A stretch of DNA of 41,498 nt from Escherichia coli (GTDB lineage: Bacteria; Pseudomonadota; Gammaproteobacteria; Enterobacterales; Enterobacteriaceae). The notes below the pieces were generated by a model that saw nothing but the letters and a program-made list of their open reading frames with translations, did not search any database and was not told the DNA's origin. The stretch lies in NCBI RefSeq assembly GCF_003334305.1, contig NZ_QOWS01000030.1; one strand, given 5' to 3'. The position numbers and the translations under genes were made by a program. Every line of letters starts with the position of its first letter. Position 1 is the first letter of the stretch. Positions 34,459 to 37,531 of the stretch are shown piece by piece.

Positions 34459-35193
34459 TTATGCTGCGACAACAATCTCCTTTTCGGCAAATGTAGAGCG
34501 TAGTCGGCGGGCGAACGCCAGTGCGTGCTCGCCGTCGCCATGCAGGCAGACTGTTTGCGCCGTGACCGTTGCCCATTCGCCGGTGATACTTTTGACTCTG
34601 CCGTGTTGCACCATCTCTAGCGTTTGCGCCAGCGCCTGTTCTTCGTTTTCAATCAACGCGCCTGGCTGACTTCGCGGCACCAGCGAGCCGTCAGCCTGAT
34701 AACCGCGATCGGCAAACACTTCCTCGCGCGTTGTCAGGCCATATTGCTTGCCTGCACGAATCAGCTCGCTTCCTGCCAGCCCAACGAGAATCAATGCCGG
34801 ATCGCAAGCGTATACCGCTCTGGCGATGGCGTCTGCCAGTTGTGCTTCTTTCGCCGCCTGGTTGTACAACATGCCGTGCGGTTTGACATGACGCATTACG
34901 CCGCCTTGCGCACGGGCAATCGTTGCCAGCGCGCCAATTTGATACAGCGTCTGGGCGTAAACGGTTTCTGGCGGCAACTGCATGGCGCTGCGACCAAAAT
35001 TTTCCCTGTCGGGAAAACTCGGGTGAGCGCCAATTGCAACACCATTTTTTATTGCTTCACGCACGCAAGCCTGCATGGTTTGCGCATCGCCTGCATGAAA
35101 TCCACAGGCAATATTGGCAGAGGAAACCAGCGTTAATAGCTCTGCGTCGCTGGCGCAGCCTTCGCCCAGATCGGCGTTCAGGTCAATTTTCAT
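34459..35193 (-). CDS. pxpA: 5-oxoprolinase subunit A (LamB/YcsF family; formerly YbgL), 244 aa
   Basis: ORF 34459..35193 minus; [36 protein letters not shown]... Confidence 0.9.
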
Positions 35194-36115
35194 TGTGCAG
35201 CCGCCACGCTAATTGTTCAAAATAACGTTGCTGATCTTGCCGCGCTTTCAGTGCCTCTTCCAGTGAACACTGGACAAAATGAATCGGCTGACCGAGCGGA
35301 ATTTGCGCAAGATGGTACATATCAGCCTCAATGATGCAGGCAATACGCGGGTAACCACCGGTGGTCTGTGCGTCGTTCATCAACACAATCGGCTGCCCGT
35401 TATGTGGCACCTGCACCACGCCCGGTAACAAACCGTGAGATAACAGTTCGCGATCGGTGGTGCGTTTTAAAATTTGCCCCTGTAAGCGATAGCCCATGCG
35501 GTTACTTTGCGAGCTAAGCTGCCAGGGCGAACGCCAGAATGCATCCTGCGAGGCACGATCGAACTCATGATATTCCGGCCCCGGCAAGGCGCGAATGCGG
35601 TTGCCCCACAGCAGCTGTTTAACGCCCTGCGCTTCCATAAAATCACGCTTCGCTTTGCCAATCGGGAGTCGGTCACCATCCTTCAGTAAACGGCCTTCCA
35701 GCCCGCCAATCCCCACTTTGAGATCGGTGCTGCATGACCCCATTACCGGCGGAACATCAATACCACCCGCGACCGCCAGATAACTGCGCATCCCGTGCTG
35801 CGGGCGTTTAAGCGTTAAACGCTGGCCTGCTTTCATCGGCAATCGCCAGCCGGTCCAGACGGCATTATCATCCAGCCGCGCTTCGCAACCGGCACCCGTC
35901 AGAGCAAACCACCCATCAGTTTCGAACTCAACAGTTAACTGACCGAGCGTGATCTCCAGCGCGGGGGCATTGGCGTCATTACCCACCAGTAGGTTAGCAA
36001 TGCGTAACGCGGGCATATCCAGTGCGCCGCAGTGGCTGATACCCGACTGGCGAAAACCGTGACGACCGCCATCCTGCACAGTGGTATACATGCCCGCACG
36101 AATAATCTTCAGCAT
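35183..36115 (-). CDS. pxpC: 5-oxoprolinase subunit C (KipA-like; formerly YbgK), 310 aa
   Basis: ORF 35183..36115 minus; [33 protein letters not shown]... Confidence 0.9.
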
Positions 36116-36765
36116 ACTCCCTCCTTCTGCGGTACAAAGCGCACGCTGTCTCCCGGACGTAATAAGATGGGTTCGTCACGCGCCGGATCAAACAGGCTGA
36201 GTGAGGTATGACCAATCAACTGCCAGCCACCCGGCGTTGCCAGCGGATAAACACCAGTCTGCGGCCCGCCGATCCCGACAGAACCTGCCGGAACGAGTAA
36301 GCGCGGTTCAGCGCGCCGTGGCGTGTGTAGTTGTTCCGGCAAACTCCCGAGATACGGGAAGCCCGGTTGAAAACCTAAAAACCAGACCACGTATTCCACG
36401 GAGGAGTGCAATTCAACAACCTGTTTTTCGCTCAACCCGCAATGCGCCGCGACCACCGCCAAATCCGGTCCGCCTGCACCACCGTAAACCACCGGAATTT
36501 CAATAAAGCGAGACTCAGGTTCCAGGGCCTCGCTCTCCTCCCACCAGCGTTGCAAACGCTCTATGGCATCCAGCGCCAGCGACTCAGGATTACGCAAAAT
36601 CACCGTAATATTGTTCATGCCGGGAATGGCTTCAACCACATTCGGCATATCCACCAGACGCTGCGCCAGTCGCCAGATCCGTTTCTGGCTAGCCAGCGTC
36701 ACCGGCGGTTCCAGTTCCAGCACTACCGCCGTTTCACCTATCAGATAACAACGCGCTCGTTGCAC
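36109..36765 (-). CDS. pxpB: 5-oxoprolinase subunit B (KipI-like; formerly YbgJ), 218 aa
   Basis: ORF 36109..36765 minus; [35 protein letters not shown]... Confidence 0.9.
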
Positions 36766-36787
36766 TTTCGATCCCTCTGATTATTCG

Positions 36788-37531
36788 TTATGCAGGATTA
36801 GGAATATCAATAAAGGTCACATCAAGATCGGTATTTTCATTCAGCCACTCGCTCAATGCGCGAATACCACCACGTTCAGTGGCATGGTGACCTGCAGCAT
36901 AAAAATGCAATCCCTGCTCGCGGGCTGAATGAATGGTCTGTTCAGAAACTTCGCCAGTAATAAAAGCATCCACGCCAAAACGCGCGGCGCTATCGATAAA
37001 ACTTTGCCCGCCGCCCGTGCACCAGGCGACGCGCTGGACCACCTCAGGTCCGGTATCGCCACACCATAACGGCTTACGTCCCAGACGCGCTTCAATCCAG
37101 GAGGCTAGTTCCAGTCCCGGCACAGGCATGGTCAGCTCTCCCCACGGCACCAACGGCTCAATTTCGCCCATGACCGTGATCCCCAGTAACGCCGCCAGCT
37201 GTGCGTTATTGCCCAGCTCAGGATGTGCGTCAAGCGGCAAATGCCAGCCATACAGGTTGATATCATTCGCCAGCAACGTTTTTAAACGGTTACGCTTCAT
37301 TCCGCGAATGACCGGAGACTCTCCTTTCCAGAAGTAGCCATGATGCACAATGACCGCATCCGCGCCCAGACGCACTGCCTCATCGAGCAAAGCCTGGCTG
37401 GCGGTGACACCGGTAACAATTTTTTGCACCGTCTCTTTGCCTTCCACCTGCAAACCATTCGGCGCGTAATCACTAATCGCCGCGCTGTTCAGTTTTTCGT
37501 TAATCAGTTGTTCCAGTTCGGTGTTTTTCAT
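36788..37531 (-). CDS. ybgI: Nif3-family dinuclear-metal-centre protein YbgI (GTP cyclohydrolase 1 type 2 homologue), 247 aa
   Basis: ORF 36788..37531 minus; MKNTELEQLINEKLNSAAISDYAPNGLQVEGKETVQKIVTGVTASQALLDEAVRLGADAVIVHHGYFW... Confidence 0.9.
   Translation of the reverse strand: MKNTELEQLINEKLNSAAISDYAPNGLQVEGKETVQKIVTGVTASQALLDEAVRLGADAVIVHHGYFWKGESPVIRGMKRNRLKTLLANDINLYGWHLPLDAHPELGNNAQLAALLGITVMGEIEPLVPWGELTMPVPGLELASWIEARLGRKPLWCGDTGPEVVQRVAWCTGGGQSFIDSAARFGVDAFITGEVSEQTIHSAREQGLHFYAAGHHATERGGIRALSEWLNENTDLDVTFIDIPNPA

Follow-up and report, generated by a model that had tools for sequence, protein, structure and literature searches.

ybgI and the 5-oxoprolinase genes of Escherichia coli: a known five-gene operon and a gene adjacency limited to Enterobacterales

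The ybgI-pxpB-pxpC-pxpA-nei block described here is the known, long-annotated E. coli operon. Co-transcription of its genes is taken from the literature, and the genes, boundaries, operon and structures of YbgI, PxpA and PxpC are already in public records. Our overall reading, which we hold at roughly 80%, is that this is a five-gene operon in which the link between ybgI and the pxp (5-oxoprolinase) genes is a lineage-specific accretion. The ybgI product belongs to Nif3/DUF34, a universally conserved family of still unknown function, and the comparative result sharpens how the ybgI-pxp junction can be used. An association found in a single order, and tight in only one family, is unfit as guilt-by-association evidence for Nif3/DUF34 function.

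The five-gene block in E. coli

The window, meaning the whole 41,498-nucleotide stretch of DNA that was analyzed, is E. coli sequence and matches strain M8 at 100% identity. Of 5426 complete genomes, 5425 contain the block. All five genes lie on the minus strand, with the following features in the order of reading:

37532–37801, minus strand: divergent dtpD/ybgI intergenic region, 270 nt from the ybgI start to the dtpD start; presumed operon promoter region
36788–37531, minus strand: ybgI, Nif3/DUF34 dinuclear-metal-center protein, 247 aa, ATG start
36766–36787, minus strand: ybgI-pxpB spacer, 22 nt, CGAATAATCAGAGGGATCGAAA, with ribosome-binding site GAGGGA
36109–36765, minus strand: pxpB (ybgJ), 5-oxoprolinase subunit B, 218 aa, GTG start; same boundaries in RefSeq
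36109–36115, minus strand: pxpB/pxpC overlap, 7 nt, ATGCTGA, with AAGGAGGGAG just before it
35183–36115, minus strand: pxpC (ybgK), 5-oxoprolinase subunit C, 310 aa
35183–35193, minus strand: pxpC/pxpA overlap, 11 nt, ATGAAAATTGA
34459–35193, minus strand: pxpA (ybgL), 5-oxoprolinase subunit A, 244 aa
34424–34458, minus strand: pxpA-nei spacer, 35 nt, with ribosome-binding site AAAGGA
33632–34423, minus strand: nei, endonuclease VIII (263 aa), the last gene of the operon

The same five genes make up the K-12 operon ybgI-ybgJ-ybgK-ybgL-nei (b0710–b0714), from which the window shows no difference of substance; it is another E. coli strain. DNA identity to a K-12 derivative is 98.8%, and the RefSeq annotation of that derivative gives gene lengths, gaps and overlaps all identical to ours. 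A first-pass annotation of the window had reported the two overlaps, the 22-nt spacing behind ybgI and the span 34459–37531, all of which hold against the open reading frame list and the sequence, though it did not mention the minus strand. It had also placed nei directly downstream of pxpA, where it indeed lies, 35 nt away.

Along the block, the spacers between these same-strand genes measure 22, −7, −11 and 35 nt. A terminator scan from ybgI to nei returned no terminator-like site at any junction, and the 22-nt ybgI-pxpB spacer contains neither a hairpin nor a T-run. Strand, short or negative spacers and the lack of an intrinsic terminator are thus those of a single transcription unit. A published operon table lists nei, ybgI, ybgJ, ybgK and ybgL as one unit, and the title of a 2000 paper (Gifford & Wallace) names nei as the terminal gene of an operon. 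The earlier proposal that ybgI is co-transcribed with pxpBCA agrees with the gaps, overlaps, missing terminators, table and title. Its four-gene extent does not: the unit had been ended at 34459, whereas the five-gene table and, as far as its title goes, the 2000 paper carry it to 33632.

A simple sigma-70 scan of the dtpD/ybgI intergenic region gave no strong minus-strand match, which does not imply that a promoter is absent. The same region holds a perfect 12-bp inverted repeat at 37679–37712. At the far end of the block, nei and the convergent abrB share 4 nt at the nei stop codon.

Both overlaps recur in relatives. Of 30 related loci, one per species, 29 preserve the 7-nt pxpB/pxpC overlap, and pxpC and pxpA overlap by 11 or 14 nt in 20 of the 25 loci with a pxpA gene, which makes both overlaps a conserved feature and no start-codon artifact. 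Overlaps this short between genes on one strand are frequent in bacterial operons, so those of the pxp genes are real but not unusual. Translational coupling through them is probable and would let the subunits be made together.

Protein families

Proteins were assigned with NCBIfam models and their curated cut-offs. All five pass, each above the cut-off of its equivalog model and in agreement with its RefSeq name, so the gene identities first proposed from the sequence stand. YbgI scores 531.6 bits against NF008064 (PRK10799; cut-off 414) and 276.9 bits against TIGR00486 (YbgI_SA1388; cut-off 130.55). The match spans residues 1–247, placing YbgI in Nif3/DUF34 over its full length, and PF01784 is recorded for all homologs. 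The sequence is identical to the "ybgI" of PDB entries 1NMO and 1NMP. In an alignment of 30 sequences at 35–59% identity, H64, D101, H215 and E219 are invariant and H63 and H97 at least 90% conserved, so the His/Asp/Glu residue set of the dinuclear metal site is retained. This alignment was built from a representative search; a word-index search gave nothing below 75% identity, too narrow a set for sampling diversity.

Two names are attached to YbgI. NF008064 carries the name "Type 2 GTP cyclohydrolase I"; Reed et al. 2021 challenge this annotation and report that ybgI in trans fails to complement a folE mutant. The name should not be taken as the function of YbgI. RefSeq calls the product "radiation resistance protein YbgI". 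The literature searched on ybgI in relation to radiation and DNA damage offered no useful lead to the source of this name. Two matches from the literature were discarded, one a typographical error for ygbI and the other a TorR localization study.

The three subunit families of the 5-oxoprolinase PxpABC are all present. PxpB scores 355.6 bits against TIGR00370 (cut-off 145.55), PxpC 593.9 bits against NF045499 (cut-off 500) and PxpA 517.8 bits against NF003812 (cut-off 378). PxpC has the same length as, and a near-identical sequence to, PDB 5DUD "YbgK", and PxpA matches PDB 1XW8 "ybgL". The pxpABC genes encode an ATP-dependent 5-oxoprolinase (Niehaus 2017, as described in papers citing it). Nei matches the endonuclease VIII model NF007763 (PRK10445) over its full length at 505 bits (cut-off 252), and all Fpg models score under their cut-offs against it.

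ybgI, pxp genes and their neighbors in relatives

We compared neighborhoods in 80 species, comprising 35 loci from Enterobacterales and 45 from other Gammaproteobacteria, around relatives of YbgI at 52% identity or higher. The survey ran from the ybgI side, and its distant sampling consisted of three further Nif3 homologs. In 30 of the 35 Enterobacterales loci, and in 0 of the other 45, pxpB is found downstream of ybgI at a distance of 6 kb or less. Near the three more distant homologs (37–41% identity), pxp Pfam families were found in 0 of 3 cases, and a scan of viral contigs with YbgI gave one locus (57% identity), which has no pxp genes. The published list of the top 20 COG partners of COG0327 does not mention the pxp COGs. 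ybgI and pxp therefore do not form a conserved functional gene pair across the distant taxa sampled.

Within Enterobacterales, the junction varies by family. The ybgI-pxpB gap is 11–29 nt in 15 Enterobacteriaceae, and that range occurs only there; it is 103–156 nt in 10 Erwiniaceae/Pectobacteriaceae and 416–418 nt in Yersinia. In Rahnella an opposite-strand MFS gene stands between the two genes, in Hafnia they are 4.2 kb apart, and Klebsiella sp. BIGb0407 has phrB-ybgI-nei and no pxp genes. Three Pantoea/Erwinia gaps open with a GC-rich hairpin, behind which stands a conserved promoter-like motif, TTGACA-17-CATAAC, and the Yersinia gap has a terminator-like 13-bp hairpin with a T-run 10 nt later; these are consensus matches. 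Retention of the adjacency over several Enterobacterales families could reflect selection rather than inertia.

These distributions bear on the puzzle implied by the first-pass annotation, namely what ybgI has to do with oxoproline repair. It loses weight with an adjacency that is absent from all 45 species sampled outside Enterobacterales, is tight only in Enterobacteriaceae and has a terminator-like hairpin in the gap in Pantoea, Erwinia and Yersinia. That annotation had itself proposed that rarity of the pairing in other genomes would count against a link, and in the species sampled the pairing is indeed missing outside the order, though frequent within it.

Many relatives carry genes for DUF969 (PF06149), DUF979 (PF06166) and pyroglutamyl-peptidase I (pcp) downstream of pxpA, where the position between pxpA and nei is filled by DUF969-DUF979-pcp or by pcp alone. 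This arrangement makes the pxp genes a pyroglutamate module in their own right. One such locus, in Citrobacter werkmanii (L003), has pxpBCA-DUF969-DUF979-pcp in the same place between ybgI and nei and with the same overlaps. E. coli differs in having neither the DUF969/DUF979 membrane pair nor pyroglutamyl-peptidase I, with nei following pxpA directly.

On the other side of ybgI, 18 Enterobacterales loci have phrB immediately upstream in the same orientation (gap 6–102 nt), and nei is downstream of ybgI in most loci of the order. Among the 45 loci outside it, phrB is nearby in 2 and nei in 0. In E. coli, the opposite-strand dtpD now separates phrB from ybgI. We considered phrB and nei as steadier neighbors of ybgI than pxp and dropped the idea, since the full neighborhood table shows them to be nearly as restricted to Enterobacterales.

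In other bacteria, too, the three subunit families are encoded by neighboring genes, often tightly joined, in different company: pxpA-ycsG-ycsI-kipI-kipA in B. subtilis, pxpTABC in C. glutamicum and pxpAGBC in C. difficile. The E. coli block differs from these clusters in its order B-C-A and in lacking both a transporter gene and a dedicated regulator. Its pxp set sits between ybgI and nei, whereas the other clusters adjoin pxpT or ycsG. Reported partners include pxpT in Corynebacterium, pxpG in C. difficile, and ycsG in Bacillus, V. fischeri, Agrobacterium and Micrococcus. The NRAMP-family protein YcsG/MntG is a Mn2+ importer, as shown in B. subtilis. Seen from the Nif3/DUF34 side, ybgI is a canonical COG0327 member whose operon includes DNA-repair and metal-dependent proteins, as has been described for the family (Reed et al. 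2021). The E. coli locus contains none of the top family-wide partners (COG1579, sigma-70, primase, tRNA A22 methylase and others).

Explanations for the linkage

We propose that the five same-strand genes are read from a promoter upstream of ybgI. According to the literature on its activity, pxpBCA supplies a three-subunit ATP-dependent enzyme converting spontaneously formed 5-oxoproline to glutamate; nei supplies the DNA glycosylase endonuclease VIII, and ybgI a hexameric Nif3/DUF34 protein that carries a dinuclear metal site. The arrangement phrB-ybgI-pxpBCA-nei, with or without DUF969-DUF979 and with or without pcp behind pxpA, was probably assembled in Enterobacterales; the pxp genes may have been inserted between ybgI and nei, or may be ancestral and have gone missing later in Klebsiella sp. 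BIGb0407, Photorhabdus and Providencia. The 11–29-nt ybgI-pxpB spacer would then be a derived compaction in Enterobacteriaceae, and E. coli would have lost the membrane-protein pair and pcp. Placement of pxp behind ybgI is most likely a matter of operon accretion and shared housekeeping expression, with no biochemical partnership between the products.

An unlikely alternative is a selected "damage-control" operon, in which YbgI would act with the photolyase PhrB and with Nei, and the metabolite-repair genes pxpBCA would have been recruited for shared housekeeping or stress expression. The frequent phrB and nei flanks in Enterobacterales fit this idea, as do the phrB-ybgI-nei arrangement that Klebsiella sp. 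BIGb0407 retains without pxp and the RefSeq name of YbgI. In a table of Reed et al., YbgI also appears as "putatively involved in DNA repair", with the structure paper as the reference. The same table, however, records that a ybgI mutant has no UV survival defect and is instead sensitive to cell-wall antibiotics. Adjacency to phrB and nei is also as taxonomically restricted as that to pxp, and dtpD parts phrB from ybgI in E. coli.

Quite improbable, in our view, is that YbgI serves as a metal chaperone or insertase for a client in its own operon, either PxpA/PxpABC 5-oxoprolinase or the Nei zinc finger, with co-transcription pairing client and maturation factor. Reed et al. 2021 propose a metal insertase or chaperone role for DUF34/Nif3 proteins and report that the products of most genes in DUF34 operons depend on metals. 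YbgI keeps its full dinuclear-site residue set, a metal-supply partner recurs where pxpABC clusters with YcsG/MntG in other phyla, and the ybgI-pxp adjacency persists across most of the Enterobacterales sample. Against this stand the 45 of 45 loci outside the order without pxp beside ybgI, the one Klebsiella species that lost pxp and kept ybgI-nei, the terminator-like hairpins in Pantoea, Erwinia and Yersinia gaps, and the missing pxp COGs in the published partner list. No experiment ties ybgI to 5-oxoproline. The narrower version, in which YbgI is a dedicated metal-delivery factor for 5-oxoprolinase or the Nei zinc finger and the Enterobacterales counterpart of YcsG/MntG, strikes us as very doubtful. 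Were YbgI to supply metal to 5-oxoprolinase, the enzyme would be a testable client, and the first defined bacterial one, for Nif3/DUF34.

Hardly credible is a coincidental adjacency in E. coli, with ybgI an independent terminator-bounded gene, which the first-pass annotation had named as evidence against linkage, and pxpBCA(-nei) read from its own promoter. The hairpin and promoter-like motif between ybgI and pxpB in relatives with wider gaps make an internal promoter in the 3' end of E. coli ybgI conceivable, but the E. coli spacer is 22 nt and free of hairpin and T-run, the operon table groups all five genes, and the title of Gifford & Wallace puts nei at the end of an operon.

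The ybgI-pxpBCA-nei block in the window

The best reading of this block is the known five-gene operon, and the feature is already known. Five genes (ybgI, pxpB, pxpC, pxpA and nei) lie consecutively on the minus strand. The first-pass annotation had described the first four as an operon with overlapping reading frames; the ORF list and the sequence bear out all of its coordinates, gaps and overlaps and add the strand.

Features of the block, in order from ybgI to nei
36788-37531, minus: ybgI, 247 aa (ORF list and sequence)
ybgI-pxpB spacer, minus: 22 nt, CGAATAATCAGAGGGATCGAAA, with ribosome-binding site GAGGGA
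36109-36765, minus: pxpB, GTG start, 218 aa
pxpB/pxpC overlap, minus: 7 nt, ATGCTGA, with a strong AAGGAGGGAG site ahead of it
35183-36115, minus: pxpC, 310 aa
pxpC/pxpA overlap, minus: 11 nt, ATGAAAATTGA
34459-35193, minus: pxpA, 244 aa
pxpA-nei spacer, minus: 35 nt
33632-34423, minus: nei, 263 aa

A terminator scan found no terminator-like site in the four junctions from ybgI to nei, and the 22-nt ybgI-pxpB spacer is too short for a hairpin plus T-run. Moreover, a published operon table groups nei, ybgI, ybgJ (pxpB), ybgK (pxpC) and ybgL (pxpA) as one unit, and a paper of 2000 (Gifford & Wallace) names nei in its title as an operon's terminal gene, which together imply that the unit comprises five genes and ends at 33632. 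The interpretation in the first-pass annotation is supported in part; it drew the lower boundary one gene short. Translation of the oxoprolinase subunits is probably coupled through the 7-nt and 11-nt overlaps, of which the pxpB/pxpC one is preserved in 29 of 30 species.

At its end, nei shares a 4-nt stop-codon overlap with a convergent abrB ORF (33632-33635), so that neither gene has space behind it for a terminator between the two. Upstream, a simple promoter scan located no promoter in the 270-nt intergenic region between ybgI and the divergent dtpD. At 37679-37712 this region carries a perfect inverted repeat of 12 bp, TATTTATGCAAT-N10-ATTGCATAAATA, which could be bound by a regulator. 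Among 82 loci, only E. coli K-12 and E. albertii match it exactly.

Across its 4.2 kb the block matches E. coli strain M8 at 100% identity. Of 5426 complete E. coli genomes, 5425 carry it, at 95–100% identity; gene lengths, gaps and overlaps in a K-12 derivative equal those of the window exactly. RefSeq names the genes ybgI (“radiation resistance protein YbgI”), pxpB, pxpC, pxpA and nei, and all five proteins have full-length NCBIfam equivalog matches scoring above the curated cut-offs. Structures of the E. coli proteins have been solved for YbgI (1NMO/1NMP), PxpA (YbgL; 1XW8) and PxpC (YbgK; 5DUD). Coverage of the block falls below 80% in only two of the matching E. coli genomes; in one of them, FDAARGOS_943 (match H12, NZ_CP065615.1), the match lacks the first 997 query bases (the upstream region and most of ybgI). 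One NCBI record (P0002, 425 aa) is an in-frame fusion of YbgI, ending at ...FIDIP, with PxpB, starting at VTLASQ..., and carries a second internal deletion. It has a single database member and probably reflects either a strain-specific deletion or an error of assembly.

Conservation of the ybgI-pxpB junction

Using an alignment of YbgI and 29 homologues (35–59% identity), we fetched the loci of 80 species from the GTDB genome collection (YbgI identity 97% down to 52%), checked the family placement of less familiar genera, and ran tblastn against the loci, taking as queries the E. coli proteins plus three from Citrobacter. Of the 35 Enterobacterales loci, 30 had pxpB no more than 6 kb downstream of ybgI, as did none of the 45 others (Pasteurellaceae, Orbales, Vibrionaceae, Aeromonas, Alteromonadales, Shewanella, Alcanivorax and Stutzerimonas). 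The Enterobacterales exceptions are Photorhabdus (two loci), Providencia, an uncultured Enterobacterales genome and Klebsiella sp. BIGb0407. The Klebsiella locus reads phrB-ybgI-nei (L017, 4578-7617); it lacks pxp genes, and 87 nt separate ybgI from nei. In three Enterobacteriaceae species (L007, 8339-8353; L013; L016), nei follows pxpB-pxpC after 9–26 nt and pxpA is absent from the locus. Such genomes either encode pxpA at another site or have a defective oxoprolinase.

The length of the spacer between ybgI and pxpB tracks taxonomy.

Length of the ybgI-pxpB spacer by taxon
Enterobacteriaceae, 15 loci: 11-29 nt
Erwiniaceae and Pectobacteriaceae, 10 loci: 103-156 nt
Yersinia, 2 loci: 416-418 nt
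Rahnella, 2 loci: 1.8 kb, containing an MFS transporter gene on the opposite strand
Hafnia, 1 locus: 4.2 kb

Pantoea and Erwinia spacers open with a GC-rich hairpin directly after the ybgI stop (L018, 6750-6775; equivalents in L019 and L021), which in Pantoea sp. IMH has an 11-bp stem. A promoter-like TTGACA-17 nt-CATAAC motif, common to three of four Pantoea and Erwinia loci, follows it. The Yersinia spacer has a 13-bp hairpin with a T-run 10 nt on. All of these elements are consensus matches rather than mapped ends; those of Pantoea and Erwinia suggest that ybgI and pxpBCA are transcribed separately in Erwiniaceae.

Outside Enterobacterales, Vibrionaceae show the order seqA-pgm-(unknown gene)-ybgI, followed by citrate synthase on the opposite strand and by sdhCD, and Alteromonadales carry a CmoM-like methyltransferase or elyC after ybgI. 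These neighbourhoods indicate that ybgI usually stands alone within a conserved chromosomal setting. Near three more distant Nif3 homologues (37–41% identity), pxp Pfam families are absent, and the neighbours are protease, tol or cell-division genes. A family-wide DUF34/Nif3 neighbourhood study names COG1579, sigma-70 and primase among the leading partners, and its top-20 listing makes no mention of pxp COGs (Reed et al. 2021).

The first-pass annotation had named two observations that would tell against its linkage: ybgI rarely adjoining pxp genes in other genomes, and ybgI forming its own terminator-bounded unit. The former holds outside one order; the latter holds in some relatives, judging by their hairpins, but not in E. 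coli. The junction is best read as a lineage-specific arrangement, tight only in Enterobacteriaceae.

In 18 Enterobacterales loci, the gene immediately upstream of ybgI, and co-oriented with it, is the photolyase gene phrB. Escherichia, Citrobacter and close genera have dtpD inserted between phrB and ybgI. We dropped the claim that phrB and nei are ybgI's “true” partners because their linkage is almost as limited to Enterobacterales as that of pxp.

The pyroglutamate module and YbgI function

In several relatives, pxpA is followed by genes for two membrane proteins, DUF969 (PF06149) and DUF979 (PF06166), and then pyroglutamyl-peptidase I. This set occurs behind pxpA in Citrobacter, Pseudocitrobacter, Enterobacter, Pantoea, Erwinia and Yersinia, lying between pxpA and nei in Citrobacter werkmanii (L003, 9123-11491) and in L008, L009, L018, L020, L021, L026, L027, L029 and L051. 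Pectobacterium, Brenneria and Rahnella keep the peptidase alone. These neighbours place the pxp genes in a coherent pyroglutamate module. The DUF969/DUF979 pair, for which NCBIfam has no model, may be a 5-oxoproline transporter, as we infer; the peptidase releases 5-oxoproline, the likely transporter would move it, and the oxoprolinase opens it. Compared with its relatives, E. coli has a reduced version of the module, having lost DUF969/DUF979 and the peptidase. In other phyla, pxpABC is accompanied by pxpT, pxpG or the NRAMP protein YcsG/MntG, not by Nif3.

Nif3/DUF34 proteins have been proposed to be metal insertases (Reed et al. 2021), and a Mn2+ importer is encoded in pxp clusters of other bacteria. 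Together these raise the idea that YbgI supplies metal to a product of its own operon, which we consider highly improbable. Database names for 36788-37531 conflict: NCBIfam NF008064 calls the protein “type 2 GTP cyclohydrolase I,” at odds with the failure of ybgI to complement a folE mutant (Reed et al. 2021), while RefSeq's “radiation resistance protein” is at odds with a tabulated report of no UV survival defect in the ybgI mutant (Reed et al. 2021).

At the window's far end, Rfam matches a CpoB/ybgF thermometer element (1004-1142, minus; 142 bits) and a tRNA (5-77, minus), both expected for the E. coli tol-pal region.
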